A stretch of 64,000 nucleotides of DNA. It comes from a virus. Each line of letters starts with the position of its first letter. Positions within the stretch are counted from its first letter, which is position 1. The stretch is taken from the IMG/VR virus record IMGVR_UViG_3300036852_000503, one strand, 5' to 3'. The notes beneath the pieces are model-generated. The model was not told the origin of the DNA and ran no database searches. It saw only the letters and a program-made list of their open reading frames with translations. The position numbers and the translations under genes were made by a program. This document shows, piece after piece, positions 11,824 to 33,791 of the stretch.

Positions 11824-14199
11824 TCAAGATCCAAAATTCGCCGCCCACGCGGCCGTCCCCGAGGCCCACCGTACCCCCCTGAAACCTCGTACCTTCACGC
11901 CTCCCACGTTGACGGCGTTCTTGGGTCGGTCCAGTCCGTGACCGGTCAGCTCGCGCGACAACCGGATCATGTTCAGCTTGTCGAAGCCCCGGACGCCGTG
12001 CTGCTCGCACCAGCGCTCGTACGCGGCGTACAGCTCCGTGTTGTCGATGAAGTCGTTGGGGTCGCCCGTCCGCGTGAACGTGTCCTCGATGAACTGCCCC
12101 GTGAAGTCCTCCTCGTCGCGGTACGTCTTGACGTCGTCGCGGATCGACGCCGGTACGCCCAGTGAGCCGAGCTGCCGCCAGTCCAGCAGCCCCTGGAGCG
12201 CCCAGTTCAGGATGCCCGACGCCTCCTCCAGGTACAGCAGGTCGCCGAACCGGTCGATCGCCTGGCCCGGCTGGATCTTGCCGTGGCAGAGGATCCGGTG
12301 CATGCGGTTCCACACGCCGTCCGAGGGGTCCCGGACGGTCGGCTGGCCGTTGCCCGCGATCCACAGCTTGAACTGGGCGTCGAACTCGAAGAAGTCCTTC
12401 TTCATCCGGCGCGCCTTCACGCGCTTCGACCCGGTCAGCGCCTTCACGCGCTCGACGTTCAGCGCCTTGCCCTGCCGGGTCTCGTCGATGAACACCAGCC
12501 GCGCGCCGAGCAGGTCGGCCATGATGGTCGGGTGCTGCTCGTCGCCGCCGGTCAGCAGCGCGGTGGTGGCCGTCTGGGCGTAGGAGCCCATGAGCTGCAT
12601 CACCGGCTCGATGAACGCGTTCTTACCGTTCGAGCCGCTCCCCTCCATGAAGAAGAACGACCGGGCACCCACGTCGCCGGTCAGCGTGTAGCCGACGGCC
12701 CGGCGGATGTAGGCCATCAGCACCGGGTCGCCGTTGCAGAGCAGCTCGACGTGGCCCAGCCACCGCTGGTACGTCGCCGTTGGGTCGTGCGTCACCTCGG
12801 CGAGCCGGGTGCAGAGCTCCTCACGCCTGGACTCGCGCAGCTCGCCGGTACTCAAGTCCAGGGTGCCGTTGCGCACCACCAGCAGGTTCGGGTCGGAGTC
12901 CAAGTCCTCGGTGGTGACGACCAGCTCGGGCTCCGCCTCGGCGCCGGCGAGCATCGCGCGCCGTCGCTGGATCGACTCGGAGTCGCGCGCCCAGTTGGCC
13001 AGCCGGGCGCGGACGTCGCCCTCCGCGACCTCGGCGTCGCGCCGGATCGAGTCGATGACCTCCTTCGTGAGGTCCAGCGACCGGTTGGTCCGATCGGGTG
13101 CCCACCGGAGGCCGTCCCAGACGTACCAGCGCTTCTCGTCCGCCGCGAACCGCAGCCGGTCGCCCAGGACGCGGACCACCCGCAGCGAGTTGCCGAGGTC
13201 GGTCGGGAGCGCGTCCCGCGGCGGTGCCTCCTGGACCTGGGTGGCGCTCAACCCCACGCGCTGGGCCCACGCCAGCGTGGTGGGCGACGGCCCGGCGATC
13301 CCGCGTCCCGGCCCGTGCTCGCGCCGGACGCGGTCCACGAGCTCGATCACGTCGTCGGCCGTCCACGGGTTGGCCGGGTCCGAGTTGACCAGCAGCTGGA
13401 GGACCACCATGCCGAGCGCGATCATCTCGGAGCGGTACGCGTTGCGCCCGCGCAGCGAGCACATGTACCGGTAGAACTCGGTCTGCTGCTCGCCGGGCGC
13501 GATGCCGTCCCGGAGGATGCCCTCGACGTCCACCCGCTCGCCGCGGTCGTCCAGGGCCGGGTTGTCCTCGGCGGAGTGCGCCCCCGACCGGTCGCGCCCC
13601 GCGCCGCCGACCTGGAGCGCCTCGACCCACCTGGGCCCCAGGAACGCCAGGTCGGCGACCTGCGGGACCGACTCGCTGAGTACCCACCCCGGCGCGTACC
13701 ACCGGTACGTCCCCTGGGTGTCCGGGTGCACGGACGGCCAGACCACGGCGAACCGGTGACCGTGCCGGACGATCTCGACGTTCGAGCCCCGGCCGAGGTC
13801 GGACTTCCAGTCCAGGCCCGGCGGGACGCGGTAGAGCCGGATGCCCGACCCGGACCCATCCGTCCGCGACGTGGAGATCCACGTCGGCGGCAGTTGCTCG
13901 TCCAGCTGCGTCTCGAACCAGTCGACGGTCTCCGCCCCGACGCGGCCGTTGTAGGCGTCCACGTCGACGCCCAGCACGTCGTCCGGCAGGCGCAGCCCGA
14001 CGTTGGCGCGCGGCATCGACTCGACCCACTGGTCCAGCTGCGCGTCGTCGGGCCACGGTGCCCCGCGTCCGGTGAAGTCCATTGGCGGCGTCCGCTTGCC
14101 GATGATCGGCAGGACGCCGAGCCACCCGGCGTCGCGGTACGCTCGCGCCCCGTCGCCGTACGGGGCCGTCACCCGGCCACCCGGCCGTTCACGCGGCAC
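11824..14199 (-). CDS. Bifunctional DNA primase/polymerase plus P4/D5-type helicase
   Basis: 791-aa ORF. N-terminal prim-pol-like region (AYRDAGWLGVLPIIGKRTPP...VDVD...). C-terminal P-loop FFFMEGSGSNGKNAF with LVFIDE Walker B. The start could be GTG 14199 or GTG 14172. Confidence 0.85.
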   Translation of the reverse strand: MPRERPGGRVTAPYGDGARAYRDAGWLGVLPIIGKRTPPMDFTGRGAPWPDDAQLDQWVESMPRANVGLRLPDDVLGVDVDAYNGRVGAETVDWFETQLDEQLPPTWISTSRTDGSGSGIRLYRVPPGLDWKSDLGRGSNVEIVRHGHRFAVVWPSVHPDTQGTYRWYAPGWVLSESVPQVADLAFLGPRWVEALQVGGAGRDRSGAHSAEDNPALDDRGERVDVEGILRDGIAPGEQQTEFYRYMCSLRGRNAYRSEMIALGMVVLQLLVNSDPANPWTADDVIELVDRVRREHGPGRGIAGPSPTTLAWAQRVGLSATQVQEAPPRDALPTDLGNSLRVVRVLGDRLRFAADEKRWYVWDGLRWAPDRTNRSLDLTKEVIDSIRRDAEVAEGDVRARLANWARDSESIQRRRAMLAGAEAEPELVVTTEDLDSDPNLLVVRNGTLDLSTGELRESRREELCTRLAEVTHDPTATYQRWLGHVELLCNGDPVLMAYIRRAVGYTLTGDVGARSFFFMEGSGSNGKNAFIEPVMQLMGSYAQTATTALLTGGDEQHPTIMADLLGARLVFIDETRQGKALNVERVKALTGSKRVKARRMKKDFFEFDAQFKLWIAGNGQPTVRDPSDGVWNRMHRILCHGKIQPGQAIDRFGDLLYLEEASGILNWALQGLLDWRQLGSLGVPASIRDDVKTYRDEEDFTGQFIEDTFTRTGDPNDFIDNTELYAAYERWCEQHGVRGFDKLNMIRLSRELTGHGLDRPKNAVNVGGVKVRGFRGVRWASGTAAWAANFGS

Positions 14200-16368: not shown

Positions 16369-17109
16369 ATGACCACCAAGTTGCACACGGTTCTCGCGCT
16401 CCTCAAGGGAACGCGCCAGCGTGCCTACGCGGCGAACGCGGAGCTGCGCAAGACCGCCAAGAAGAACGACCTGTACGCGGGCATCGCCCGGCGGTACCAG
16501 CCGCGCAAGGAGGACGGCGACACGCTGCCGGAGGAGTCCACGCTCGTCCAGCAGGACGCGGGCGACATCCTGGAGCAGTTCGTCGCGAACCAGGTCAAGC
16601 TGTGGGACCTGACGGGCACGATGGAGGCGACGAGCGGCGTCGCCCGCGCGGACATCATCACCGCCAACAACACCGTGCTGGCGACCGACGTCCCGGCCAC
16701 GTTCATGCTCTTTCTCGAGCGTCAGCTGGACGACGTACGGACGTTCATCAACGACATCCCGACTCTCAACCCGGCCGAGGTTTGGCACACCGACCCGAGC
16801 GGGACGTGGGCGACGGAGCCGTTCAAGACGGTGCGGACCAAGAAGATCCCCCGGAATCACGTGATCGCGCCGGCCACCGACAAGCACCCGGCGCAGGTCC
16901 AGGTGTTCACCGAGGACGAGATCGTCGGCGACTGGACCACGATCAAGTACTCCGGCGCGCTGGCGGCCGGGCACAAGCGCGAGATCATCGACCGGATCGA
17001 CGCGCTCAAGGACGCGGTCAAGTCGGCCCGCGAGCGCGCGAACGAGGCGGAGGTCGTGGAGGTACGCGTGGCGGCACGCCTGTTCGACTACCTGCTCGGT
17101 GGCTCGTAG
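16369..17109 (+). CDS. Hypothetical protein (246 aa)
   Basis: Track ORF 16252..17109 trimmed to ATG 16369 (GAGGGAC upstream); MTTKLHTVLALLKGTRQRAYAANAELRK... Confidence 0.75.
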   Translation: MTTKLHTVLALLKGTRQRAYAANAELRKTAKKNDLYAGIARRYQPRKEDGDTLPEESTLVQQDAGDILEQFVANQVKLWDLTGTMEATSGVARADIITANNTVLATDVPATFMLFLERQLDDVRTFINDIPTLNPAEVWHTDPSGTWATEPFKTVRTKKIPRNHVIAPATDKHPAQVQVFTEDEIVGDWTTIKYSGALAAGHKREIIDRIDALKDAVKSARERANEAEVVEVRVAARLFDYLLGGS

Positions 17110-17113
17110 GACG

Positions 17114-17122
17114 TGGTAGGGT
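17114..17122 (+). promoter_or_regulatory. Extended -10 promoter candidate upstream of the tRNA cluster
   Basis: TGGTAGGGT at 17114-17122, immediately after the stop of the preceding gene. Confidence 0.3.
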
Positions 17123-17203
17123 AGACCACGTCGCGAATACTCCATGGGGATGATGGAGAGCACGAAAGCCGTCGGTCGTGGTGGGCGGGCGGCGAGTAGG
17201 GTA

Positions 17204-17281
17204 GGCACGGTAGCTCAACGGTAGAGCAACGAGCGGCGGGAGTCGCTCTTACGGTTCCAGGTTCGAGTCCTGGACGTGCCG
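17204..17281 (+). tRNA. tRNA-like gene with a non-canonical anticodon arm (identity undetermined)
   Basis: Acceptor GGCACGG/ACGTGCC (6 of 7 bp). D-arm GCTC-AACGGTA-GAGC. T-arm CCAGG-TTCGAGT-CCTGG. Between them are 28 nt instead of about 22: a 5-7 bp stem (GAGCG/CGCTC core) with an 8-nt loop GCGGGAGT, and a 6-nt variable region. Confidence 0.45.
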
Positions 17282-17329
17282 CGCAGCACTAGACACAGAC
17301 GCAGTGACAGTGAAAGACAGATCGGAAAA

Positions 17330-17401
17330 CCCCGTTAGTGGAGGTTCGAGTCCTTCCCGGGACACTCATGCCCCGGTAGCCCAATTGGCAGAGGCGCGGG
17401 G
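17330..17401 (+). ncRNA. Circularly permuted tRNA-like unit B (3' half then 5' half)
   Basis: Order: CCCCG (17330-34), TTAGT, T-arm GGAGG-TTCGAGT-CCTTC, CCGGGAC-A, linker CTCAT, GCCCCGG (17370-76), TA, D-arm GCCC-AATTGGCAG-AGGC, G, CGGGG (17397-401). Acceptor strands pair 6 of 7. CGGGG/CCCCG form a perfect 5-bp anticodon stem. Total 72 nt. Confidence 0.4.
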
Positions 17402-17470
17402 ACCCGCACAGACACTCGCTGCAGACACAGCACGCACGCCTAGGACCGGATCGACTGGTCGTGTCAATGA

Positions 17471-17562
17471 TTCCGAGACGGTGGTTCGAATCCGCCCGCG
17501 CGCTCCAAACATCATGCGCGCGTAGTAGAGTGGCAACACGCGGATCCCTAAGACAAAGTCCG
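17471..17562 (+). ncRNA. Circularly permuted tRNA-like unit C (3' half with encoded CCA, then 5' half)
   Basis: Order: TTCCG (17471-75), AGAC, T-arm GGTGG-TTCGAAT-CCGCC, CGCGCGC-T-CCA (to 17507), 8-nt linker, GCGCGCG (17516-22), TA, weak D-arm with GG, G, CGGAT (17541-45), CCCTAAG... Acceptor pairs 7 of 7; CGGA/TCCG pair. The downstream segment alternatively forms CGGAT-12 nt-GTCCG (17541-62). Confidence 0.35.
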
Positions 17563-17595
17563 ACCTGCACCGCTGCCGGTACGCCGAATAGGCAG

Positions 17596-17667
17596 TACAT
17601 CAAAGCTCAATGGTCGAGCAACTGACTTCTAATCAGTGTGAAGCGGGTTCGATTCCCGCTGATGTCA
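17596..17667 (+). tRNA. tRNA-Arg (anticodon TCT)
   Basis: Acceptor TACATCA/TGATGTC (6 bp plus a 1-72 mismatch). D-arm GCTC-AATGGTC-GAGC. Anticodon arm ACTGA-CTTCTAA-TCAGT. Variable GTGAA. T-arm GCGGG-TTCGATT-CCCGC. Discriminator A; no encoded CCA. Confidence 0.85.
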
Positions 17668-17752
17668 ACATCGCTACCTGCAAAGTAGCTTGGAGGCCGG
17701 TCCTGGGCAGGGCCGGCCTCCGCCATCTACGGACTAGCGTTTGGGGTGAGTC

Positions 17753-17956
17753 GTGGAGAGAGTGAAGATCACGCGCACGATCGTGCACACCGCGTTCGTG
17801 CCTCGCGAGTGTTATCCCGGCATGTCGAGGCGCGCCGTCGTCGATCACGAGACGTCGCTGCCGCTCGCCGAGGCCGTCGAATCACTGGTTGACGCCGGTG
17901 AGTTCGAAGTCCAGCTGACCACCGTCGTGCAGTTCGAGGAGATGAGTGACCGATGA
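17753..17956 (+). CDS. Hypothetical protein (67 aa)
   Basis: Track ORF with ordinary composition. Confidence 0.65.
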   Translation: MERVKITRTIVHTAFVPRECYPGMSRRAVVDHETSLPLAEAVESLVDAGEFEVQLTTVVQFEEMSDR

Positions 17957-18153
17957 GAACGTGTGGGTACGCGGGGATCCGCGACGCCGCCGAGAGTGCA
18001 GCCGTCGCGTTTCACGCGGTGGCCGAGTCGTGCCGTGGTACCGGCACGCCGCTCGGCACGGCGAGCGCGCTGCGAACTGCCAGCGTCGCGCTGGCGGGCA
18101 TGGCCGACGAGTTCACGTCCCTGCACGACGCGATCACCGCGGCCGGTCGGTAG
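17953..18153 (+). CDS. Hypothetical Ala-rich protein (66 aa)
   Basis: Track ORF; ATGA coupling to the upstream gene. Confidence 0.6.
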   Translation: MRTCGYAGIRDAAESAAVAFHAVAESCRGTGTPLGTASALRTASVALAGMADEFTSLHDAITAAGR

Positions 18154-19118
18154 TGCTCCTACTAGTCGACGGTGCGGACTGCGTCGCCAAGTCGACGCTC
18201 GTCCACCGGCTCGTCGACGCGATCACGGCGCGCGAGGCCGACGGTCGACTCGACGTCAGGCACGCCGGGCCGCCGACGAGCCATCCTCTGGACGAGTACG
18301 AGACGCCGCTCCTGGACTACCGCCCGGGAACCGGTCGGCACGTCGTCTGCGACCGTTGGCACCTCGGGGAGGCGGTCTACCCGGCTGTGTTCGGGCGCCC
18401 CACCAAGTTCGACGACGCCGTGCGACTCCACGTGGACCTATTCCTCCGGTCGCGCGGCGCGTTGGTCGTCGTGGTCACCGCGCGCGCCACGCGCGTCCAG
18501 CAGTGCATCGAGGAGCGCGGCGACGACCTGGTCACGTCCGACATGGTCCACGCGATCCAGTCGGGCTTCACCGACGCCCTGCGGATGAGCCTGGTGCCGT
18601 TCGTCGTCGTCAACGGCTACGAGGTGACCGACGACGACGTCCGGCTCATCATCGAGCGCGCCGACGCCGAGGCGCGCGGCGCCGCGCGGCTCAACCAGTT
18701 CACGACGTACGTCGGACCGGCGCGCCCCGCGACGCTCCTCCTGGGCGACGTGCGCCACGGGTCTGACGGCGACCCGGGTGACCTGCGACCCGCGTTCATG
18801 CCGTACCCGGCGACGTCGGGGCACTACGCGCTCGGCGAGGTCGCGCGCCGGTGGCCGATCACCGCGCTGGCGGGTCTGGGCATCGCGAACGCGTGCGACG
18901 TCGACGACCCGGTCGAGCTGCGCGCGGCGCTGGGCGACCCGGTCACGGTCACGCTCGGCCGCAACGCCCAGCGGCGACTACCCGGGATGGCGCGCGAGTT
19001 GCCGCACCCGCAGTGGGTCCGGCGTTTTCAACACCGGAGCGGCGACGCGTACGCCGCCATGCTGCTCGGTGAACCCATTCCCGACGTGTACTCGCAGGTC
19101 GAGCTCACGCTACCGTAA
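18153..19118 (+). CDS. P-loop nucleotide/nucleoside-monophosphate kinase-like domain fused to a UDG-superfamily-like domain
   Basis: Track ORF 17946..19118 trimmed to GTG 18153 (TAGTG overlap). N-terminal LLLVDGADCVAKSTLVHRLV with a DRWH-type segment (CDRWHLGEAVY). The C-terminal half has LLLGDVRHGSDGDPGDLRPAFMPYPATSGHYAL and LPHPQWVRR, resembling UDG family-4 motifs A and B. Confidence 0.5.
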   Translation: MLLLVDGADCVAKSTLVHRLVDAITAREADGRLDVRHAGPPTSHPLDEYETPLLDYRPGTGRHVVCDRWHLGEAVYPAVFGRPTKFDDAVRLHVDLFLRSRGALVVVVTARATRVQQCIEERGDDLVTSDMVHAIQSGFTDALRMSLVPFVVVNGYEVTDDDVRLIIERADAEARGAARLNQFTTYVGPARPATLLLGDVRHGSDGDPGDLRPAFMPYPATSGHYALGEVARRWPITALAGLGIANACDVDDPVELRAALGDPVTVTLGRNAQRRLPGMARELPHPQWVRRFQHRSGDAYAAMLLGEPIPDVYSQVELTLP

Positions 19119-19131
19119 GGAGGCCAACCCG

Positions 19132-20016
19132 TTGGAGCTCAAGCTCACCGACATGCGCGACGACTACGTGGGTCTCGTGCGGCACGTGATCAGGAACGGC
19201 GCGGAGGTCTCGGCGCGCGGCATCGCGACGCGCGAGCTGACCGCCGTGACGCTGGTCATCGAGAACGTCCTGGAGCCGCTCCTGCCGATCGGCGTCGGCC
19301 GCGGCGTGAACACCCGACTGGCGGCGCTCGAGGCGCTCCAGCTCATCTCGGGCGTCTCCCGGTTCGACCTGGTCCAGGTCGTCGCGCCGGGCTTCGCGCG
19401 CGTCCTGGTGGACCAGGCCGACCCCGACTACGGCGCGTACGGCCCTCGGATCGTCCAGCAGGTCACCGACTGCGTCGACCTGCTCGAGCGCGACCCGTCG
19501 AGTCGGCAGGCCGTGTGCGTCATCTGGAACGAGAAGGACCTACGGCACGCGGGCGACAAGCCCTGCACGGTGTTCATGCAGTTTCTCGTGCGCAAGAGCC
19601 CCACCGGCGAGTTCGACGCGCTGGAGCTGCACACGCACATGCGCAGTCAGGACGTCTGGCTCGGCGTGCCGTACGACGTGTTCATGTTCACCCAGTTGCA
19701 GCACACGGTGGCGAGTGAGCTTCGGCTACCGGTGGGTAGGTTCGTGCACCACGTGACCAGCCTGCACATCTACGAGCGCGACCTGGACGCCGCGACCAAG
19801 TTGCACGGCGTGACGGGACCGCTCGCCGACGAGCTGCCCTGCGGCGTCGTCCCGGCGCGCGACGGCGCCGGTGACGACGGCGACGACGGCTTCAACGTCG
19901 CGGCGTACCTCCTGGAGGGCAACAGCACGACGGCGGAGGACGCGGCCAACCCCTGGTACGCGGTGCAGCTCGACGAGATCGAGAAGCAGCTGGCGACGGA
20001 GCACGACGGTGGGTGA
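19132..20016 (+). CDS. Thymidylate-synthase-family pyrimidine C5 methylase or hydroxymethylase
   Basis: TTG 19132 after TAAGGAGG. Motifs: SRQAVCVIWN, catalytic DKPCTVFMQFLV, MRSQDVWLGVPYDVFMFTQL, SLHIYERD. Substrate and chemistry cannot be read from the sequence. Confidence 0.8.
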   Translation: MELKLTDMRDDYVGLVRHVIRNGAEVSARGIATRELTAVTLVIENVLEPLLPIGVGRGVNTRLAALEALQLISGVSRFDLVQVVAPGFARVLVDQADPDYGAYGPRIVQQVTDCVDLLERDPSSRQAVCVIWNEKDLRHAGDKPCTVFMQFLVRKSPTGEFDALELHTHMRSQDVWLGVPYDVFMFTQLQHTVASELRLPVGRFVHHVTSLHIYERDLDAATKLHGVTGPLADELPCGVVPARDGAGDDGDDGFNVAAYLLEGNSTTAEDAANPWYAVQLDEIEKQLATEHDGG

Positions 20017-20029
20017 CGACCGACCCTCG

Positions 20030-20497
20030 ATGGACCAGACGCTCATGCGGATGGCGGTGCTGATGGCCGATCGCGCCACGTGCTCGCGCGCCCAGGTCGG
20101 CGCCGTCATCGTCAAGGAGACGCGGCCGATCTCCAGCGGCTACAACGGCACCGCCGCCGGTCTTCCCCACTGCGACCACTCGTGCAACTGCGGGTATCCC
20201 GGTGAGGGCGGTAAGTACTTTGACGGCAAGCACCTGTCAAACTGCCGCACACTGGTACCCTGTGATGAAGCTATTCACGCCGAGGCCAACGCCGTCGCGT
20301 TTGCGGCCAAGCACGGCGTCTCGACGGACGGCGCCACGCTCTACACGACAATGACTCCCTGTCTAGCGTGCGCTAAGCTGATCGCGAACGCCGGCATCAC
20401 GCGCGTCGTCGCCGCGTCGGCGTACCGCGACGACAGCGGTATGCTGCTGCTCGAGCGGCTGGGCATCCAGGTGCAGAGTGGGTCACTTTACCTCTAG
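20030..20497 (+). CDS. Deoxycytidylate (dCMP) deaminase
   Basis: ATG 20030; zinc motifs HAEANAV and TPCLACAKLI; GYNG. Confidence 0.85.
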   Translation: MDQTLMRMAVLMADRATCSRAQVGAVIVKETRPISSGYNGTAAGLPHCDHSCNCGYPGEGGKYFDGKHLSNCRTLVPCDEAIHAEANAVAFAAKHGVSTDGATLYTTMTPCLACAKLIANAGITRVVAASAYRDDSGMLLLERLGIQVQSGSLYL

Positions 20498-20512
20498 GAA
20501 GTAGGAACTCAC

Positions 20513-20626
20513 GTGGAAGTCATACTGATCATCGCGGCGCTACTCTGGGCGTACCTGCTGGGTCGTCGGCACGGTCGCGCCGCCGTGGAGCGTCGCGTGC
20601 AGGATCTTCTCGGCCGACCGAGGTAG
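20513..20626 (+). CDS. 37-aa membrane micro-protein
   Basis: Not in the ORF track. GGAAGTAGGAA RBS, GTG 20513; EVILIIAALLWAYLLGRRHGRAAVERRVQDLLGRPR. Confidence 0.5.
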   Translation: MEVILIIAALLWAYLLGRRHGRAAVERRVQDLLGRPR

Positions 20627-20635
20627 GAGCGTGGC

Positions 20636-22432
20636 TTGAGTCTTGATGAGGTCAAGGGCATCCATCTCGTCGATGACCTTGACACGGCGTGGGAGTGCAA
20701 GCGCTGGTTGTCCACGTGCGACGAGATCGCCGTGGACACGGAGGGCACGGGATTAAATACCCGGATCGACAAGGTGCGGCTGCTGCAACTCGGCGACCGG
20801 CAGACCGCGTACTGCATTCCCATCGACTTTCCCGGCTGGGGCGCGCTCGGAACCGAGCTGCTCACCAAGTTCCAGGGGCGAATGGTCGCGCACAACCTGA
20901 CTTACGACGCCGAGATGATCAAGGGCACGCTCGGGGTCCAGCTGCCGATCGAGCGCTGCGACGACACGCGGCTCATGGCGCACGTGCTGGAGTCCACCGG
21001 TTCGACGGCGCTCAAGAGCCTCACGCGGCGGTTCGTCGACCCGCGGGCCGGCAACTTTCAGCACCAGCTCGACGACGCGATGAAGAAGAGCGGCTGGTCC
21101 TGGTCGATCATTCCGATCGACTTCGAGCCGTACTGGATGTACGGCGGCCTCGACACGATCCTCACGATGCAGCTCAAGGACTACCTCGAGCCGCAGGTCA
21201 TGGCGGAGGCACCCGAGTCGTACGCGCTGGAGCTGGCCGTCGCCTGGGTGACGCGCCGCATGGAGCAGCGCGGCATCCAGCTCGACCGCGAGTACACCGC
21301 CGAGCTGGCGGCCAGCCTTAGCAGGTACGTTGAGGAGGCCGAGACCTGGTGCCAGGCGTACTACGGCGTCTCCCCGGGGTCCAACGCCAAGGTCGTCGAG
21401 CGCCTCCAGGCGGATGACGTCGAGTTCACGAAGATGACCGACGGCGGCGCGTGGAGTCTCGACGCGGAGGTTCTCGAGTCGATCGACCACCCGCTCGCCG
21501 AGACCGTGCTGAAGCGCCGGCGCGCGCAGAAGACCGTGTCCACCTACCTGGACAACTACCTGACCATGTCCGAGTGGGACGGTCGGATCCACCCGTCCAT
21601 CAACACCATCGGCGGCACGGACAAGAACCCGTTCGAGCCGGGTGGTAGCAAGGGCGTTCGGACCGGTCGCATGTCGTGCAGCGATCCCAACCTGCAGAAC
21701 GTGCCCATTCGCACCACCATGGGCAAGCGGATTCGCAACTGCTTCACGTCGTCGATCGACCACACGTGGATCAAGTCCGACTTCTCGCAGATCGAAATGC
21801 GGGTCTTGGCGCACATGTCGCAGGATCCCAACATGATCGCCGCGTTCAACGCGCCCGGCGACTTCTTCGTGAACATGGGACGAACGCTCTTCGACGAGCC
21901 CGACTTCCGGAAGGCCGACCCGCGTCGCCAGCTACTCAAGAACGGCGGCTACGCGAAGATCTACGGCGCGGGCATTCCCAAGTTCGCCAAGACCGCAGGC
22001 GTGCCGGAGCTCGAGGCCAGCGACTTCATGCGCGACTTCGACGGGCTGTACCGGAAGGTGCCCGAGTGGATTCGGTCGATCGAGAACCTGGGTCGTTCAA
22101 CGCTGAGTCACGAGGGTCAGGCGTACGTGCGCTCGCCACTTACCGGGCGCAAGCACGTCGCCGACGCGGGTAAGCTGTACGTGCTGGTCAACTACCTGAT
22201 TCAGGGTACCGCCGGCGAGATCCTCAAGCGTAAGATCGTGGAGGCCGACCAGGCGGGCCTGGGCGACTTCATGATCCTACCGGTGCACGATGAGATCGAC
22301 CTGGACGTGCCCAACGACGACCTGGAGGACGCGATGGCGACGCTGCACGACGTGATGAACGACGCCGAGCTGCTCACGGTGCCCATCACCGCGTCGATCG
22401 AGACCGGTCTGCGCTGGGGCGACGTCGCGTGA
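20636..22432 (+). CDS. polA: Family A DNA polymerase (Pol I-like, with 3'-5' exonuclease domain)
   Basis: 598-aa ORF. Exo motif IAVDTEGTGL. Polymerase motifs SCSDPNLQNVP, DFSQIEMRVLAH, RRQLLKNGGYAKIYG, ILPVHDEI. Confidence 0.92.
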   Translation: MSLDEVKGIHLVDDLDTAWECKRWLSTCDEIAVDTEGTGLNTRIDKVRLLQLGDRQTAYCIPIDFPGWGALGTELLTKFQGRMVAHNLTYDAEMIKGTLGVQLPIERCDDTRLMAHVLESTGSTALKSLTRRFVDPRAGNFQHQLDDAMKKSGWSWSIIPIDFEPYWMYGGLDTILTMQLKDYLEPQVMAEAPESYALELAVAWVTRRMEQRGIQLDREYTAELAASLSRYVEEAETWCQAYYGVSPGSNAKVVERLQADDVEFTKMTDGGAWSLDAEVLESIDHPLAETVLKRRRAQKTVSTYLDNYLTMSEWDGRIHPSINTIGGTDKNPFEPGGSKGVRTGRMSCSDPNLQNVPIRTTMGKRIRNCFTSSIDHTWIKSDFSQIEMRVLAHMSQDPNMIAAFNAPGDFFVNMGRTLFDEPDFRKADPRRQLLKNGGYAKIYGAGIPKFAKTAGVPELEASDFMRDFDGLYRKVPEWIRSIENLGRSTLSHEGQAYVRSPLTGRKHVADAGKLYVLVNYLIQGTAGEILKRKIVEADQAGLGDFMILPVHDEIDLDVPNDDLEDAMATLHDVMNDAELLTVPITASIETGLRWGDVA

Positions 22433-28136: not shown

Positions 28137-28688
28137 ATGGATCGACGTCGGCACGTCGTGTTCGACCTCGACGGCGTCCTACTGGACACCGCCGACATCA
28201 TCACGGTCGCGTACATGCGTGCCGGCGTCGACCCACCTCACAACATTCTCGAGTGCGAGGGCACGAACTGGCTCGCTGGGCAGGTCCAGGGTGACGAGCT
28301 CACGCGGGTGCGCCGGCACAAGAACGAGTTCTACCTCGACATGCTGCGACGCTTCGAGGCCGCGCACATGCCCGCGTTCACCACGGTGTGGGACTTGCTT
28401 GACCGTGGGTATCGGCTGCACGTGCTCACCGGCGCGCCGAGCGGCGCGATCGAGGCGCTTCGCGAGGGTTACTACGGCGAGAGCAACTGGCCCTTCACGT
28501 CCGCGTTCGACGGCGTCACCACGCCCGAGAAGATGAAGTTGCTTGCCCGCCTTGGTGACGGCGGGGTGTATATTGACGACCAGGCGCGGCTCGTCGATGT
28601 TCCCGACGGCTGGCGCTTCATCCACTACACCGGTCAGAGCGCGGACGAGTTGCTCCGGCTGGTCGAGCACGGCGAGAGGAAAGTTTAA
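28137..28688 (+). CDS. HAD-superfamily hydrolase/phosphatase
   Basis: Motif I VVFDLDGVLLDT; motif III/IV region GGVYIDDQ. Confidence 0.75.
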   Translation: MDRRRHVVFDLDGVLLDTADIITVAYMRAGVDPPHNILECEGTNWLAGQVQGDELTRVRRHKNEFYLDMLRRFEAAHMPAFTTVWDLLDRGYRLHVLTGAPSGAIEALREGYYGESNWPFTSAFDGVTTPEKMKLLARLGDGGVYIDDQARLVDVPDGWRFIHYTGQSADELLRLVEHGERKV

Positions 28689-29579
28689 GTGCGACTCTGT
28701 GTAGGTGCGGTATCGCAGCGGGTCGTCGAGGAGGCGGCCAAGCTCCAGGTGCACCAGGTCGTCGCGTCGCGGCGTCAGGTGGACGTCGGCGGGGGTTACA
28801 CCGGCTACGACCAGACGACGCTGGTCGACACGGTCAAGCGGTTGAGCGAGGGTAACACGAAGGTGGTGCGTGATCACGGCGGGCCGCTCCAAGGTGGCAC
28901 CGACGACGACGGCCGCGCGTCGCTGGATGCCGACGTTCAGGCCGGGTTCGACGGCCTGCACCTCGACGTCTGCCAGTTGCCGTACGACCGGCAGGTGACC
29001 GAGCTGCTCGAGCTGCTCGAGACGTACGGCAACCTGGGCCTGACCATTGAGATCGGTGGCGAGCACGACACCCAGGAGCACAACGCGCTGCTGCTCGGCG
29101 CCGCGCTCGCGTTCGGCGTCGAGATCGACTACGCGGTAGTGGGCTTCGGTTCGCGTGTCTGGGCCGACCGACAGTACGGCGCGCCGACCTACGCGGGCAA
29201 GCTTATGCTCACCAGCGCGCGCGCGAACGCGCTCGGCGTCAAGACTAAGATTCACAACGTGGACTGGGTCGGCGGCCGAGTCGCGAACTACGCGGGTACA
29301 GTCGACGCGTACAACATCGCGCCCGAGTTCGGCGCCGTCGAGATCGACGCGCTGCTCACCGTTCTCAACTCGGACGTGGCGTACGGGCTGCTCGAGTTCG
29401 CGCACAAGAGTAAACTCTGGACCCGCTGGTTCAACGCGAACGAGGGCACGTGGTTCGACCGTGCCAAGTGCGCGCTGCGCTACCTCCAGTGGTCCAGTGA
29501 GGTGCAGGATGTCACGCTCAGCCACGACGCCGACCAGTTTGTGAGGATGATGATCCGTGATGCAATTCAGCGTGGGTGA
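28689..29579 (+). CDS. TIM-barrel sugar-phosphate enzyme-like protein (tagatose/fructose-bisphosphate-aldolase-like)
   Basis: 296-aa ORF, GTG start 1 nt after the HAD stop; SRRQVD...GYTG...VVRDHGGP...HLDV...EIGGEH pattern. Family assignment is tentative. Confidence 0.4.
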   Translation: MRLCVGAVSQRVVEEAAKLQVHQVVASRRQVDVGGGYTGYDQTTLVDTVKRLSEGNTKVVRDHGGPLQGGTDDDGRASLDADVQAGFDGLHLDVCQLPYDRQVTELLELLETYGNLGLTIEIGGEHDTQEHNALLLGAALAFGVEIDYAVVGFGSRVWADRQYGAPTYAGKLMLTSARANALGVKTKIHNVDWVGGRVANYAGTVDAYNIAPEFGAVEIDALLTVLNSDVAYGLLEFAHKSKLWTRWFNANEGTWFDRAKCALRYLQWSSEVQDVTLSHDADQFVRMMIRDAIQRG

Positions 29580-29949
29580 GCTGTTCGACATCCTACTCGC
29601 CGGCGAGGTGACGCTCACCTACAAGCCGTGGGGTAGCGAGCGGACGGTGGCCACCGAGCACTTCCTGCTCAAGCTGATCGACGTGCACGCCGGCGAGCGG
29701 ACGTCGCTTCAGCACCACGTCAGGAAGTATGAGATCCACTGGATCATGGGTGGCGACGGCACCATCGAGGGTACGCCCGACGACGACCTCTTCCGACCGC
29801 GACCGTCCGGTGCCTACCCGGTCTACCCCGGCACGGTGCACCGCGCGGTGGGACCGCTGACCATTCTCGAGATCAGCACCAACCACCCGGACGACGTGGT
29901 CCGACACGAGGACGACTACGGTCGCTCGGCGACAGACGGCGGTGAGTGA
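29557..29949 (+). CDS. Cupin-domain protein (sugar-phosphate isomerase/epimerase-like)
   Basis: 130 aa; cupin motifs HAGERTSLQHHVRKYEIHWIMGGDG and PGTVHRAVGP. Confidence 0.6.
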   Translation: MMQFSVGELFDILLAGEVTLTYKPWGSERTVATEHFLLKLIDVHAGERTSLQHHVRKYEIHWIMGGDGTIEGTPDDDLFRPRPSGAYPVYPGTVHRAVGPLTILEISTNHPDDVVRHEDDYGRSATDGGE

Positions 29950-29952
29950 TCG

Positions 29953-31470
29953 ATGACCGCGTTCGTGATCGTCGCCGCTGGGCTCGGTACCCGCGTGGGC
30001 CGGGTCGGCGAGTCGTTGCACAAGTCGCTGATTCCCCTCGCGCAGCGCGCCGTGCTGTCGCACCTCTTCGACCTGGCGCCTCGCGACGCGCGACTCGTCG
30101 TCTGCGTGGGTCACCGCGCCGGTCAGATCCGTGACTACGTGGCCTTGGCGCACCCGCAGCTCGCGGTTGAGTTTGTCGACGTGCCCGACTGGAACGGGCC
30201 TCACGGAGGACCTGGGGCGTCGCTACTGGCCGCTCGCGAGGCGGTGGGCGACGACGACGACCTGATCGTCACGTCGTGCGACACGCTCTGGGGCCGTGAC
30301 CAGGGTCTCTGGCACGACTCGAGTTCGTGGGTCGCCGTCGCGCCCATTCCCGCGGGCACCGACCCGATCCGCTGGACGCGCGTGGAGCACAACTCCGATC
30401 GCGTGTCCACGATCTACGACAAGCGTCACGGCGGTAGCGGCAACGAGCCGGCGTGGACCGGTCTGGCGCGCGTCGCGGCGCGGGACCTGCCCACGTTCTG
30501 GTCCGGGTTGACGAGCGCGCGACCGGCGCACGAGTTGCAGATCGTAAGCGGACTCGACGAGATCAGACACAACCTGCGGGTCAAGTGGATCGACTGGACC
30601 GACGTCGGCGACGAGACCGCGTACGCGAGCGCCGTCGCGCGCGTGAGCGGTTACGACTTCGTCAAGTACGACCAGGCCACGTACGTGCTGCCCACCGAGG
30701 GCCGGGTCGTCAAGTTCAACGCCGACCCGGAGGTGATCACTCACCGAATTCACCGCGCCGCGCACCTCACGACGATGGTGCCGACTCCGATCGTGTCGGG
30801 CAACGACGCCACGCTCATGGCGCACCCGTACGTTCCCGGCGTCACCGCGTACGACGCGGTCGAGCTGCACGACGTCGAGCTCACGCACCGCATTCTCGAC
30901 TGGTTCGACGCGACGGTGGGCAGCTCGACGGCGCACGCGCCGCTACCCGGTGCGCGCGGCACACGGCAGAGTTTGAACGAGTTCTACGTGAACAAGACCC
31001 TCGGGCGCGTCGCGCAGCTTCCCGCGCGGCTGCGGGCTTCCGCGCGCGATGCGGTGGACGCGGTCGACTGGGTCGCGCTGCTGGACGGCGCGGTCTGGGG
31101 GACGCCGCACGGCGACTTCAACCACGGCAACATCATCGTGACGCCGGGTGGCGAGCTGGTCGGCATCGACTGGCGCGAGAACTTCGCGGGCAGCTACTAC
31201 GGCGACATCCGCTACGACCTGGGCAAGCTGCTCGCCGGAACGGTGGTGCACTGGCAGCGTGCCCAGTGGGGCGACTTCCGACCCTGGGTTGAGGGTGAGA
31301 AGCACGCGCTGGCGATCCGCGAGTTCGTCGAGCGCATGCCCGGCGTGGACGTCCGCGACATCGAGATCATCGGCGCGCTGTCACTTCTCAACTGCGCCCC
31401 ACTCCACGCGGCGCCGCTCGACGAGATCCTCGTCGCGCGGGGCTGCGCGTGGCTCCAGCGGGTGCTGTGA
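29953..31470 (+). CDS. Bifunctional sugar-1-phosphate nucleotidyltransferase / APH-choline-kinase-fold sugar kinase
   Basis: 505 aa. N-terminal VIVAAGLGTRVGRVGESLHKSLIPLA (NTP-transferase G-loop). C-terminal HGDFNHGNIIV...GIDWRE (kinase catalytic loop plus DxD-like). Confidence 0.7.
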   Translation: MTAFVIVAAGLGTRVGRVGESLHKSLIPLAQRAVLSHLFDLAPRDARLVVCVGHRAGQIRDYVALAHPQLAVEFVDVPDWNGPHGGPGASLLAAREAVGDDDDLIVTSCDTLWGRDQGLWHDSSSWVAVAPIPAGTDPIRWTRVEHNSDRVSTIYDKRHGGSGNEPAWTGLARVAARDLPTFWSGLTSARPAHELQIVSGLDEIRHNLRVKWIDWTDVGDETAYASAVARVSGYDFVKYDQATYVLPTEGRVVKFNADPEVITHRIHRAAHLTTMVPTPIVSGNDATLMAHPYVPGVTAYDAVELHDVELTHRILDWFDATVGSSTAHAPLPGARGTRQSLNEFYVNKTLGRVAQLPARLRASARDAVDAVDWVALLDGAVWGTPHGDFNHGNIIVTPGGELVGIDWRENFAGSYYGDIRYDLGKLLAGTVVHWQRAQWGDFRPWVEGEKHALAIREFVERMPGVDVRDIEIIGALSLLNCAPLHAAPLDEILVARGCAWLQRVL

Positions 31471-32948: not shown

Positions 32949-33217
32949 GCGACGACGTGATCGACCCGACCGAGTTGCCCGGTCGAGTGACCGGCTATCG
33001 ACCGCAGACGTCGGCAGCCGTCACGTTGGTGAACAGGATCAAGAACTACGAGCGCGACGTCGCGATCCTGTGGGCGCAGGTCAACCGGCACGACGGCGTC
33101 GACGCCGACCAGCGTGAGCTCTCGCTCGCGCGCGATCACTTCGAGGACGGCTTCATGCACCTAGTGCGCGCCGTGTTCAAGCCCGTTGACCCATTCGTGG
33201 AGGCTCTCGGTGGCTGA
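32945..33217 (+). CDS. Hypothetical protein (90 aa)
   Basis: Track ORF; GGAGAAG RBS; GTG start. Confidence 0.65.
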   Translation: MSDDVIDPTELPGRVTGYRPQTSAAVTLVNRIKNYERDVAILWAQVNRHDGVDADQRELSLARDHFEDGFMHLVRAVFKPVDPFVEALGG

Positions 33218-33791
33218 CTGGAAGTGGTTGGAGTCGACCCGTCGACTCCAGGAGGAGTCGTTTGGCGTCGTCTACCCGATCGAGGGTGAGCAGCTCGCGG
33301 ACTACGTGGTGTGGAACCACACTGCGCTCGTCTCGGAGGCCACCGAGCTGCTGAACGAGTTCGGCTGGAAGCCGTGGGCGTCGCCTCGTGGCTGGGTCAA
33401 CCGTCAGTTGGCGCTGAAGGAGGCCGTGGACGTCGCGCACTTCCTGGCGAACATCATGTGCGCGATCGACGTGACGGACGATGAGTGGGAGGCCGCGTAC
33501 CGCTCGAAGCAGGGCGTCAACGCGACACGCCAGCGCGAGGGATACGATGGAATATCGGGGAAGTGCCCGGGCTGTAAGCGTGCGTACGACGACGACATCC
33601 ACTGCAAGCCCGGCTACCTTCAGAAGAGTGCCACGGGAGTTGTTTGCATCAAGGTAGGCGCGCAGTGCAGTGAGCAGACGTGCCCGGGATGCGGAACCGA
33701 CTACGCGGACACGGTTGACTGCTACACGGCGAACGATCCCGACAACGTAAGTCGTAAGATTTACTGTGGCAAATTGCGCGAGAACATCTAG
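33210..33791 (+). CDS. All-alpha NTP pyrophosphohydrolase (MazG / dimeric dUTPase-like) with a C-terminal Cys-rich extension
   Basis: Track ORF 33186..33791, likely GTG 33210; EATELLNEFGWKPW and KEAVDVAHFLANIM resemble the metal-binding helices. The C-terminus has CPGC...C and CPGC...C. Confidence 0.55.
   Translation: MADWKWLESTRRLQEESFGVVYPIEGEQLADYVVWNHTALVSEATELLNEFGWKPWASPRGWVNRQLALKEAVDVAHFLANIMCAIDVTDDEWEAAYRSKQGVNATRQREGYDGISGKCPGCKRAYDDDIHCKPGYLQKSATGVVCIKVGAQCSEQTCPGCGTDYADTVDCYTANDPDNVSRKIYCGKLRENI

Follow-up and report, generated by a model that had tools for sequence, protein, structure and literature searches.

A phage protein family combining a thymidylate kinase/YorR-type P-loop kinase with a minimal uracil-DNA glycosylase fold, linked to predicted hydroxymethyl-cytosine systems

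The stretch of viral DNA analysed here (the window; 64,000 nucleotides of the IMG/VR record IMGVR_UViG_3300036852_000503) contains an open reading frame (ORF) for a protein of 321 amino acids. As had been stated in a preliminary description made from the nucleotide sequence alone, the gene lies directly upstream of a gene for a thymidylate synthase (TS) family enzyme (Table 1). A gene call made independently for this contig yields the same 321-aa product for 18153-19118 (+), and the GTG start codon overlaps the TAG stop codon of an upstream 66-aa ORF by one base (TAGTG). The sequence strings quoted in the preliminary description were all located in the product, namely VDGADCVAKST at residues 5-15, GDVRHG at residues 198-203, RPAFMPYPATSGHYAL at residues 212-227 and HPQWVRR at residues 285-291. 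The ORF is confirmed to be genuine and to encode two domains, a thymidylate kinase (TMPK)/YorR-type P-loop kinase (residues 1-175) and a stripped-down uracil-DNA glycosylase (UDG) fold (residues ~185-305). Further downstream, the window contains probable genes for NDP-sugar supply. The pair of a nucleotidyltransferase and an APH-kinase domain that occurs among them has been reported for the synthesis of UDP-arabinose in phages (PMC13326640). An attempt to identify the ORF 31449-32948 as a glycosyltransferase gave no match in PDB, Pfam or PHROG and no similarity to the transferases of the DSL-LC01 metagenome-assembled genome (MAG) or of phage G.

Table 1 Features of the fusion gene and of its surroundings in the window
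Feature	Position	Strand	Evidence
Kinase + UDG-like fusion, whole ORF, 321 aa	18153..19118	+	AF2 whole-protein model, pLDDT 93.6, pTM 0.92
N-terminal TMPK/YorR-type P-loop kinase domain + linker helix, residues 1-176	18153..18680	+	PHROG 761 'thymidylate kinase', E 2e-6
Walker A / P-loop G7-A-D9-C-V-A12-K13-S-T15	18171..18197	+	K13 invariant; D9 139/145
D67-R68-W69, DR[YFHW] motif of TMPK/dNK-type kinases	18351..18359	+	Aligned to YorR 'DRF'
C-terminal minimal UDG-fold domain, residues ~185-305	18705..19067	+	Foldseek PDB + BFVD; homologue gp315 on PF03167
Motif-A equivalent G198-D199-V200-R201	18744..18755	+	Aligned to family-4 G-E-[GA]-P
RPAFMPYPATSGHYAL segment, equivalent of family-4 'GRPFVGxAGxLL' (base-stacking aromatic)	18786..18833	+	Alignment
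N246, end of strand beta2, equivalent of the base-reading Asn of UDGs	18888..18890	+	Aligned to family-4 'TN' Asn
Motif-B equivalent H285-P-Q-W-V-R-R291	19005..19025	+	Aligned to family-4/UdgX 'HP[SA]xLLR'
TS-family enzyme, predicted 5-hydroxymethyl-dCMP synthase signature	19132..20016	+	PF00303, E 1.6e-26
dCMP deaminase	20009..20497	+	PF00383, E 9.5e-26; PHROG 174, E 6e-50; gene call
Probable NDP-sugar supply genes: HAD-like, unknown 296 aa, cupin, nucleotidyltransferase + APH-kinase fusion	28137..31470	+	
dUTPase_2 / MazG-like NTP pyrophosphatase, possible dCTP/dUTP exclusion	33186..33791	+	PF08761, E 9e-10; PHROG 18650, E 1e-32
C5 cytosine DNA methylase	34031-34996		

The window protein alone has no match in Pfam or NCBIfam, and a megablast search with positions 17000-21000 against a phage collection gave no match either. 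Relatives of the protein are nevertheless numerous. At E<1e-30, they form 394 clusters at 90% identity and at least 659 when clustered at 50% identity. The best 150 are two-domain proteins, three of which are cut-off fragments. Thus, with hundreds of clusters and the best 150 having two domains, the fusion is not a chance event. Nearly all of the clusters are derived from uncultured viruses; the sole cultured relative is gp315 of Bacillus phage G. In a tblastn search of the fusion protein against phages, the DSL-LC01 MAG was the sole match at E<1e-3, and only the kinase domain was matched at E<=5, in Bacillus and Enterococcus phages. A scan of genome contigs for the fusion identified a single contig of a Coriobacteriia MAG, which looks viral and gives no information about a host or a prophage. 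The fusion family is large and unstudied, and its members currently carry wrong or incomplete annotations, either 'thymidylate kinase' or 'hypothetical'.

The N-terminal half had been described as a P-loop kinase resembling dNMP and thymidylate kinases, and several searches bear this out. The family profile matches YorR (PDB 2axp/3kb2) at E 3.9e-17, and a Foldseek search with the whole-protein model placed YorR, TMPKs and PPK2 on top, with a probability of 1.0 for YorR and the TMPKs. Moreover, PF02223 was matched in 126 of the 145 relatives for which conservation was counted (E <= 0.1, best 2.9e-9). Among these relatives, K13, R68 (145/145), G72 and Y76 are invariant and D9, D67 (143/145), E73 and R122 (132/145) nearly so. 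R122 is the lid arginine of the 'RGDD' motif and, like the DR motif, it can be aligned to its counterpart in YorR. The fusion family thus combines a P-loop having the TMPK-type aspartate, the DR[YFHW] motif with the lid arginine, a profile match to a solved TMPK/YorR-type kinase and the corresponding fold. YorR from B. subtilis SPbeta and the TMPKs (PF02223) share with the family the P-loop 'EGPDCxxKST', the DR[FW] motif, the lid 'RGD[DE]' and the fold; however, they are single-domain proteins, and the 'HPLDEY' segment of the family is missing in YorR. At position 12 of the P-loop, the window copy has an alanine, whereas 138 of the 145 relatives have a glycine. This alanine might weaken the binding of ATP.

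The C-terminal half was assigned to the UDG superfamily by structure. Because the Foldseek matches of the whole-protein model were all kinase folds, a separate model of the C-terminal domain (pLDDT 82.6) was needed. With this model, all of the top 20 matches in the PDB were family-4 UDGs or UdgX (probability 0.85-1.0), with TM scores of about 0.5 and an E value of only 6.5e-3. In BFVD, the top structural matches were viral UDGs, PolA-UDG fusions and gp315 of phage G. The models show the order beta-alpha-beta-alpha-beta-alpha-beta and the alpha/beta fold with a four-stranded parallel sheet that defines the superfamily. As judged from these models, the C-terminal half has a UDG fold, and family 4 and UdgX are its nearest relatives. 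The preliminary description had made its reading depend on a UDG fold in this half, and the Foldseek matches together with the match of gp315 to PF03167 indicate such a fold. At the sequence level, the relationship is faint. PF03167 was matched weakly in 13 of the 145 relatives (E <= 0.1, best 7.7e-5), and the two that were inspected closely fall below the curated cut-off. An hhalign comparison of the domain with four family-4 UDGs was weak as well (P about 0.01), with the motifs in register. The profile of the domain matched no UDG among the PDB sequences and hit just a spurious de novo TIM-barrel repeat, and with a hidden Markov model of four family-4 UDGs, neither the window nor the related loci yielded another UDG. 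A comparison with a 168-aa UDG-like ORF of phage M6 gave no specific similarity. The C-terminal domain is basic (median pI 9.0) and the kinase domain acidic (6.2). The pTM of 0.92 of the whole model suggests a fixed arrangement of both domains.

The residues of a UDG active site are largely present in this domain. The best structural matches of the domain, which are the family-4 UDGs of T. thermophilus (1ui0), T. maritima (1l9g/1vk2) and S. tokodaii (4zbx) as well as UdgX, share with it the acid in motif A, the stacking aromatic residue, the asparagine at the end of beta2 and the His-Pro of motif B with an arginine at +6. Position 199 in motif A is occupied by aspartate in 127 and by glutamate in 15 of the relatives (acid 142/145), and R201 is conserved in 143/145. 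In the RPAFMPYPATSGHYAL segment, F215 (144/145), P217 (142/145), Y or F at position 218 (118/145) and G223 (144/145) are conserved. N246, whose counterpart in UDGs reads the base (PMC11078745), is invariant (145/145), and the same holds for H285, P286, Q287 and R291 (145/145 each), of which R291 at +6 corresponds to the arginine in UdgX and family 4. The base-reading asparagine after beta2 and the His-Pro of motif B after beta4 are thus in the places that are typical of UDGs. However, the domain differs from family 4 in several respects. Motif A reads G-[DE]-x-R instead of G-E-[AGQ]-P-G, so that the acid is kept and the Pro-Gly of canonical UDGs is replaced by x-Arg; 'NACDVDD' takes the place of 'NxVKCRPP'; and motif B contains an invariant glutamine. 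With about 125 residues, the domain is also shorter than the family-4 enzymes (about 190), and the window protein itself gives no significant sequence match to them. The four 4Fe-4S cysteines and the motif GE[AG]PG, by which family 4 is defined, were not found; the N-terminal CxxC and the cysteines of 'KCRPP...AC' are absent, and C248 is the only conserved cysteine (109/145). A divergent member of the family, encoded at locus L040, carries 'VGEQ' and 'LPF', as do UdgX and family 4. The earlier view that the catalytic-type residues are altered is hence correct for the Pro-Gly of motif A and the Fe-S cysteines, which are lost, and incorrect for the acid, the asparagine, the His-Pro and the arginine, which are kept. 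A proline in motif A is generally found in the known UDG families. Since the family has no such proline and carries a virtually invariant arginine instead, the chemistry or the substrate of the domain may differ from those of known UDGs. In summary, the second half of the family is an unrecognised Fe-S-free mini-UDG with the unusual motif A G[DE]xR.

The gene order kinase, TS-like enzyme, dCMP deaminase and PolA is found at about 36 viral loci. In databases, the genes of this module in DSL-LC01 and in JGI records are named 'thymidylate kinase', 'thymidylate synthase' and 'deoxycytidylate deaminase', and the trio would be a classic module for the supply of dTTP. Based on these names, the fusion could be a housekeeping pairing of an ordinary dTMP kinase with a uracil-repair glycosylase that has nothing to do with DNA modification, and the TS homologue could be a normal thymidylate synthase, as annotated in DSL-LC01. 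We regard this as highly improbable. The TS homologue carries L143D, N177D, D169 and C146 at 38 of 38 loci, its closest match in the PDB is the CMP hydroxymethylase MilA, and it scores 71 bits against the ThyA equivalog with a cut-off of 327. Moreover, the module occurs together with genes for NDP-sugars and glycosyltransferases in the window, in DSL-LC01 and in phage G. According to published criteria, the combination of L143D, N177D and D169 marks a dCMP hydroxymethylase and not a dUMP hydroxymethylase; by the same criteria, a 5-hydroxy-dCMP synthase was ruled out because D169 is kept (PMC13326640). However, the C5 cytosine DNA methylase gene in the window implies some unmodified cytosine in the DNA, so a complete replacement of cytosine by hydroxymethylcytosine (hmC) is not assured.

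In the preliminary description, the fusion had been proposed to modify bases at the DNA level, by analogy with thymidine-hypermodifying phages. In such a model, the UDG-like module would flip out a 5-hydroxymethyl-pyrimidine and the kinase would begin the hypermodification by phosphorylating its hydroxymethyl group, comparable to the pair of 5-HMUDK and aGPT-PPlase. A precedent is gp186 of phage SP10, in which 5-HMUDK is fused to a helix-hairpin-helix (HhH) glycosylase-like transferase (PMC5889632). Like the window protein, SP10 gp186 consists of an N-terminal P-loop kinase and a C-terminal domain with a DNA-glycosylase fold and belongs to a phage with a hydroxymethyl-pyrimidine, but its kinase is of the PF18748 type, its second domain has the helix-hairpin-helix PF18724 fold and its partner is a dUMP rather than a dCMP hydroxymethylase. 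The occurrence of the fusion in hydroxymethyl-pyrimidine and glycosylation contexts of two distant phage lineages also agrees with an action on DNA, and Arg201 could conceivably bind an anionic 5-substituent. However, this model is very unlikely and was not upheld. The profile PF18748 of the 5-hmdU DNA kinases gave nothing at E<=1 with the window protein, whereas the positive control, gp54 of phage M6, scored 7.7e-18; PF18748 does not appear in the 25 families that the 145 relatives match most frequently, and hhalign of the family against M6 gp54 gave only a local match of 45 columns (probability 69%). The kinase retains the TMPK hallmarks for binding the phosphate of a mononucleotide acceptor, which are Asp9 of the P-loop, D67-R68 and the arginine of the RGDD lid. 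The typical context of a 5-hmdU DNA kinase, a dUMP hydroxymethylase with asparagine at N177 together with PF18724, was not found either, with aspartate at N177 in 38/38 loci; the TS partner is thus cytosine-specific, yet the asparagine of the UDG-like domain suggests a uracil-type base. The ORFs scanned in the window yielded no aGPT-PPlase (amino-acid:DNA transferase, PF18724), no PLP enzyme and no radical-SAM partner. Finally, the kinase also occurs in other architectures. Locus L032 encodes a kinase-only orthologue of 183 aa (48% identity) without a UDG domain, which indicates that the kinase does not need this domain for its function, and at locus L038 a single ORF, which matches the Pfam domains of both enzymes, encodes the kinase and the TS homologue as one fusion. 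Judging from these sequence features, the kinase most likely acts on free nucleotides and not on DNA.

The closest relative from a cultured phage, gp315 of Bacillus phage G (AEO93574.1), is uncharacterised and annotated just as 'gp315'. It has the same two-domain architecture and a similar length (331 aa), and hhalign aligns it with the family over both domains (probability 98.9%, E 2e-17), although only about 19% of the residues are identical. Both of its domains exceed the Pfam cut-offs. The UDG domain of gp315 is close to canonical, with 48.2 bits for PF03167 (cut-off 24.3), the motif A 'AQNPG' and the motif B 'HPAYVKRF'; the corresponding motifs of the window family are 'G[DE]xR' and 'HPQxxRRF', and its domain is shorter. 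The gene neighbourhoods are also alike. In phage G, gp315 lies between homologues of the T4 DNA alpha-glucosyltransferase, a dCMP deaminase and a TS homologue that likewise carries L143D/N177D/D169, and NDP-sugar genes are present. Phage G differs in being a jumbo phage with a Firmicute host. A similar logic can be seen for gp1 and gp42 of phage T4 and for the clusters for cytosine hypermodification in DLP3, RB69 and RL38J1, in which a phage kinase is paired with a TS homologue specific for cytosine and is accompanied by a deaminase, glycosyltransferases and a dCTPase-like enzyme. In DLP3, RB69 and RL38J1, a YorR/TMPK-like 'nucleotide kinase' is encoded adjacent to the TS homologue or in its vicinity (PMC13326640). 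The passages covered here mention no UDG domain on T4 gp1 or on the kinases of these three phages. Further known systems are the PolA-UDG fusions of SP-15, YerA41 and phiLo (PDB 9qhs), in which a UDG fold is joined to a replication enzyme, and SP-15 and YerA41 have modified pyrimidines. In a subfamily including SP-15 and YerA41, the active fusions clear dU that stems from residual dUTP (bioRxiv 10.1101/2025.03.26.645540). However, their partner is a polymerase and the phages modify thymidine, whereas in the window family the partner is a kinase and the associated TS homologue is specific for cytosine.

The reading that we favour, judged about equally likely to be right or wrong, is that of a bifunctional protein in a phage system for hmC DNA, probably glycosylated, in which a pool kinase for 5-hydroxymethyl-dCMP, and possibly dTMP, is combined with a DNA-facing module for uracil-type glycosylation or base flipping. 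As its residue signature suggests, the downstream TS homologue would convert dCMP to 5-hydroxymethyl-dCMP. The N-terminal kinase would then form the diphosphate of 5-hydroxymethyl-dCMP, possibly also that of dTMP, in the nucleotide pool, which is suggested by homology, gene linkage and domain fusions. In phage T4, gp1 performs the corresponding kinase job for gp42, and it has no detectable sequence kinship to the window kinase. By its fold and motifs, the C-terminal domain is a minimal Fe-S-free module of the UDG superfamily. Because the acid of motif A, the base-reading asparagine, the His-Pro of motif B and the downstream arginine are kept, the domain most likely binds DNA and flips out and excises a uracil-type base. 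Candidate targets are uracil or a 5-substituted uracil such as 5hmU arising from deaminated hmC. In this way, the modified genome would stay free of stray uracil-type bases even as the dCMP deaminase of the phage floods the pool with dUMP. The kinase and UDG activities would be separable modules and not one DNA-kinase machine.

Domains that are fused usually serve one pathway, and a UDG-like role at the nucleotide level fits this rule more naturally than one in DNA repair. In an alternative reading, the UDG-like domain would be no DNA glycosylase but a non-catalytic or pool-level module. It could bind pyrimidine nucleotides for the kinase or regulate it, or it could hold the kinase at the replisome or on DNA, and the kinase would remain a pool enzyme. 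This alternative is somewhat unlikely, although it has to be taken more seriously than the others. The shared pathway of fused domains, as in the kinase-TS fusion of L038, speaks in its favour, and so do the loss of the canonical Pro-Gly, the small size, the lack of Fe-S cysteines and the tight packing onto the kinase that the pTM would imply. Moreover, UdgX has been crystallised with dUMP (PDB 6ajp), so UDG pockets can accommodate mononucleotides. However, the invariance of the asparagine, the His-Pro-Gln and the arginine at +6 together with the acid in motif A is what a working site and a DNA wedge require, and a plain tether or scaffold would allow more change. The basic character of the domain and the kinase of L032, which exists in nature without it, also argue against this alternative. 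It is improbable that the mini-UDG, instead of serving in repair, is a new component of DNA-level hypermodification of hydroxymethyl-pyrimidines. In that case, it could act together with the kinase and flip 5-hydroxymethyl-pyrimidines or uracil-type by-products out of the phage DNA, so that they can be modified or the base replaced, or it could cooperate with the adjacent deaminase in selectively destroying host DNA with unmodified cytosine, thereby sparing the hmC DNA of the phage. If true, this would mean that the UDG fold has been recruited into the phage machinery for modification or take-over in hundreds of uncultured viruses and in phage G.

Both in Bacillus phage G and in phages for which actinobacterial hosts have been assigned, the fusion family is thus connected with predicted systems for hydroxymethyl-cytosine and for glycosylation. 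The signature of the TS homologue predicts modified cytosine across a clade of uncultured phages, most of them with 60-100 kb. Since phage G can be cultured, the role of the fusion is open to direct testing. If the C-terminal domain is not a glycosylase, it would represent a new use of the UDG fold. If it is an active glycosylase, it would define a new UDG family. Together with the PolA-UDG fusions, there would then be two cases in which phages with modified bases have built uracil surveillance into their enzymes for DNA-precursor synthesis or replication.

The protein encoded by the fusion ORF combines an N-terminal kinase of the TMPK/YorR type with a C-terminal domain of the UDG fold, as the preliminary description had in essence proposed, and all sequence strings cited there were found in it. 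On its own, the protein had no match in Pfam or NCBIfam, and its sole PHROG match was PHROG 761 'thymidylate kinase' (E 2e-6, residues 1-174). A profile of 41 family sequences matched B. subtilis SPbeta YorR (PDB 2axp/3kb2; E 3.9e-17, residues 2-167), and the AlphaFold2 model of the whole protein (pLDDT 93.6, pTM 0.92) retrieved YorR, thymidylate kinases and PPK2 in Foldseek. Moreover, 126 of 145 diverse relatives, scanned singly at E <= 0.1, matched Pfam Thymidylate_kin (best 2.9e-9). The P-loop of the window copy reads G-A-D-C-V-A-K-S-T, with Ala12 (codon 12, 18186-18188) where 138 of the 145 relatives have Gly; this exchange may weaken ATP binding.

For the C-terminal half, residues 172-321 were modelled separately (pLDDT 82.6). 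The top 20 PDB matches in Foldseek all belong to the UDG superfamily (probability 0.85-1.0, TM ~0.5, E from 6.5e-3) and comprise the family-4 UDGs of T. thermophilus and T. maritima and UdgX of M. smegmatis. A viral structure library returned phage UDGs, PolA-UDG fusions and some proteins of ~330 aa. Pfam UDG was matched by 13 of the 145 relatives (scanned singly, E <= 0.1; best 7.7e-5), and the two matches looked at closely did not reach the curated cut-off. One structural match of the domain is the unannotated gp315 (331 aa) of Bacillus phage G, for which hhalign gave an alignment of 281 columns to the family profile, spanning the two domains (probability 98.9%, E 2e-17). By itself, gp315 scores 48.2 bits against Pfam UDG (curated 24.3; residues 189-318) and 28.9 bits against Thymidylate_kin (curated 27). 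Thus, by way of gp315 and the predicted structure, the C-terminal half appears homologous to UDGs, beyond a likeness of shape. Furthermore, 'VGEQ' and 'LPF', as in UdgX and family 4, occur in a divergent member encoded by a contig of a Coriobacteriia MAG. The thymidine-hypermodifying Pseudomonas phage M6 has a UDG-superfamily-like ORF of 168 aa ('LLIGQAPGP'; DQ163916 36832-37335, in our M6 locus 16833-17336; Pfam UDG E 0.002) ~1 kb upstream of its cluster of amino-acid:DNA transferase, radical-SAM and 5-HMUDK genes; it showed no specific similarity to the C-terminal domain of the window protein.

At 90% identity, the homologues fall into 394 clusters, almost all of ~300-330 aa and with at least 91% of the query covered, and an exhaustive profile search gave 659 clusters at 50% identity (E<1e-30), of which the best 150 cover both domains save for three cut-off fragments. 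Among 185,579 species genomes, the domain was found only on one viral-looking MAG contig, and the members of the family come essentially from uncultured viruses. The window (G+C ~67%) looks like a segment of a tailed-phage genome, in which a nucleotide-metabolism and replication module surrounds the fusion ORF. The ORF starts with GTG, which overlaps the TAG stop of an upstream ORF of 66 aa by one base, and genes called independently on the public contig include the identical protein. It is followed by the TS-family gene and by genes for a dCMP deaminase, PolA, a RuvC-like resolvase, an SNF2 helicase, a PD-(D/E)XK nuclease, an AAA_24 protein and DUF669, an order kept, with RuvC as an optional member, in 31 of 36 IMG/VR loci. 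A second UDG-like ORF was sought in the window and the related loci and was not found. The RtcB ligase, here in a phage context, may serve tRNA repair that counters host anticodon nucleases.

Features of the window, with positions and strands
Feature	Position	Strand	Remarks
RtcB RNA ligase	55-1224	-	full-length; PF01139, E 5e-120
Prim-Pol/D5 primase	11824-14199	-	
Two tRNA genes	17204-17282 and 17596-17667	+	just upstream of fusion ORF; one tRNA-Arg(TCT), the other an odd 79-nt ARAGORN call, anticodon not resolved ('gg' at position 36)
Fusion ORF	18153-19118	+	321 aa
TS homologue	19132-20016	+	~70 C-terminal residues beyond Pfam TS model
HAD-like hydrolase	28137 on	+	
Unknown 296-aa ORF	within 28137-32948	+	
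Cupin (mannose-6-P isomerase-like)	within 28137-32948	+	
Nucleotidyltransferase + APH fusion	29953-31470	+	domain pair as in phage UDP-arabinose enzyme
Unknown 499-aa ORF	within 28137-32948	+	conserved after DUF669 in many relatives
dUTPase_2/MazG-like pyrophosphatase	33186-33791	+	
C5 cytosine DNA methylase homologue	34031-34996	+	aligns only with Pfam model positions 79-320
Glycosyltransferase-like gene	39373-40449	-	Glyco_trans_1_2-like, at threshold

The preliminary description had taken the kinase to act on DNA, as in thymidine hypermodification. A precedent exists in SP10 gp186, a kinase-glycosylase-fold fusion able to serve the DNA-kinase role (PMC5889632), but the defining features of such an enzyme fail in the window family. 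PF18748, the Pfam 5-hmdU DNA kinase, did not match the window protein at E<=1 and is absent from the 25 families most frequently matched by the 145 relatives, whereas the positive control, gp54 of phage M6, was recovered with E 7.7e-18; hhalign of the family against gp54 gave only a 45-column match in the lid region. Across the 145 sequences, the kinase retains residues that contact a mononucleotide in established TMPK structures, namely D9 in the P-loop, D67-R68 of DR[YFHW], which is invariant, and a lid Arg. In addition, kinase-only proteins exist: one related locus has an orthologue of 183 aa (48% identity) directly followed by a TS homologue, and in three further loci (L035-L037) such proteins are likewise followed by one. 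On a 394-kb IMG/VR contig (L038:10001-11311), kinase and cytosine-type TS homologue form a single ORF of 437 aa with both Pfam domains. Fusion of a kinase with the maker of a modified mononucleotide is a classic sign of consecutive pool reactions. These variants likewise point away from a DNA kinase, a role that now seems very improbable, and the N-terminal half is probably a pool kinase. Of the preliminary description, the fusion itself thus stands, while its interpretation is supported in part, the DNA-kinase role not being supported.

The TS homologue indicates what this pool may contain. Its best match among solved structures is the CMP hydroxymethylase MilA, and it falls far below the ThyA equivalog cut-offs. 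In E. coli ThyA numbering, the TS homologue of the window and all 37 others from related loci keep C146 and D169 and have Asp in place of N177 and L143. According to a recent study, N177D selects dCMP as substrate, L143D/E accompanies hydroxymethyl rather than methyl products and D169N marks 5-hydroxy-dCMP synthases (PMC13326640, 2026). The residues therefore form the signature of a 5-hydroxymethyl-dCMP synthase, as which the protein is predicted to act. Beside this signature, a module for ordinary dTTP supply plus repair is hardly to be expected. For the clusters of DLP3, RB69 and RL38J1 that hypermodify cytosine, that study lists a YorR/TMPK-like 'nucleotide kinase' in the immediate or wider vicinity of the TS homologue, and it describes the making of NDP-sugar by a bifunctional nucleotidyltransferase + APH-type kinase and a HAD phosphatase (PMC13326640). 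Genes of these kinds are present in the window too, as a likely NDP-sugar/glycosylation set. By the signature of its TS homologues, this clade of uncultured phages, mostly of 60-100 kb, probably has a modified cytosine. The C5 methylase homologue may be N-terminally truncated or mis-started; it would be odd if replacement by hmC were full and may hint at incomplete replacement of cytosine. The only INPHARED relative, the distant Actinomycetia phage DSL-LC01 (OQ999401), has the same replication module, right after which (93284-96905) a glycosyltransferase, a UDP-galactopyranose mutase and a MazG-like pyrophosphatase are encoded, which suggests that a modified base of this kind bears another sugar there.

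The role of the UDG half was approached through its motifs, which local hhalign and MAFFT put in register with family-4 and UdgX sequences taken from PDB alignments. LLLG-D199-V-R of the family aligns with IVG-E-G-P, P217-Y218 (or F215) with P-F, GIA-N246 with YIT-N, LG..A with LG..A, and H285-P-Q-x-x-R-R291 with H-P-[SA]-x-L-L-R. The preliminary description had regarded the catalytic-type residues as altered. This holds for the motif-A Pro-Gly and the four Fe-S cysteines, which are absent together with ~65 residues of family-4 decoration, but not for N246, H285, P286 and R291, which like Q287 are invariant over the 145 sequences, nor for position 199 (D in 127, E in 15). F215 is kept in 144 and R201 in 143 of them; R201, 'NACDVDD' and the Gln in motif B are new conserved features of the family. 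A domain without catalysis, with a nucleotide-binding or tethering role, would accord with the losses and less well with the invariant residues, and we consider it rather unlikely. In the Brig1 study, the Asn equivalent to N246 recognises uracil by its Watson-Crick face, and an enzyme excising a cytosine derivative has Glu in its place (PMC11078745). By this analogy, the invariant Asn favours a uracil-type base as the likely substrate. With a median pI of 9.0, the C-terminal domain is basic, whereas the kinase domain is acidic (6.2); this is weakly consistent with DNA binding by the former.

We therefore propose that the TS homologue would form 5hm-dCMP, which the kinase would convert to the diphosphate, perhaps acting on dTMP too. 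In a reading given slightly less than an even chance, the mini-UDG would bind DNA and flip, and probably excise, a uracil-type base; candidates are U from dUTP downstream of the phage's own deaminase and 5hmU from deaminated hmC. A precedent is the PolA-UDG subfamily, to which proteins of the thymidine-hypermodified phages SP-15 and YerA41 belong: its fused UDG domain is active and clears dU in front of the fork (bioRxiv 10.1101/2025.03.26.645540).

The family appears to be a new subfamily of the UDG superfamily, in a domain architecture, the kinase-UDG fusion, for which no description was found in the literature searched. In phage G, a cultured jumbo phage, the gene of the fusion protein gp315 (JN638751 230927-231922; in our phage G locus 25928-26920) lies among genes for two homologues of the T4 alpha-glucosyltransferase, for a dCMP deaminase, for a HAD phosphatase and for a glucose-1-phosphate thymidylyltransferase; the TS homologue encoded there shows the L143D/N177D/D169 signature. 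The fusion is therefore linked to predicted glycosyl-hmC systems in two very distant phage lineages, and gp315 makes the family accessible to experiment.
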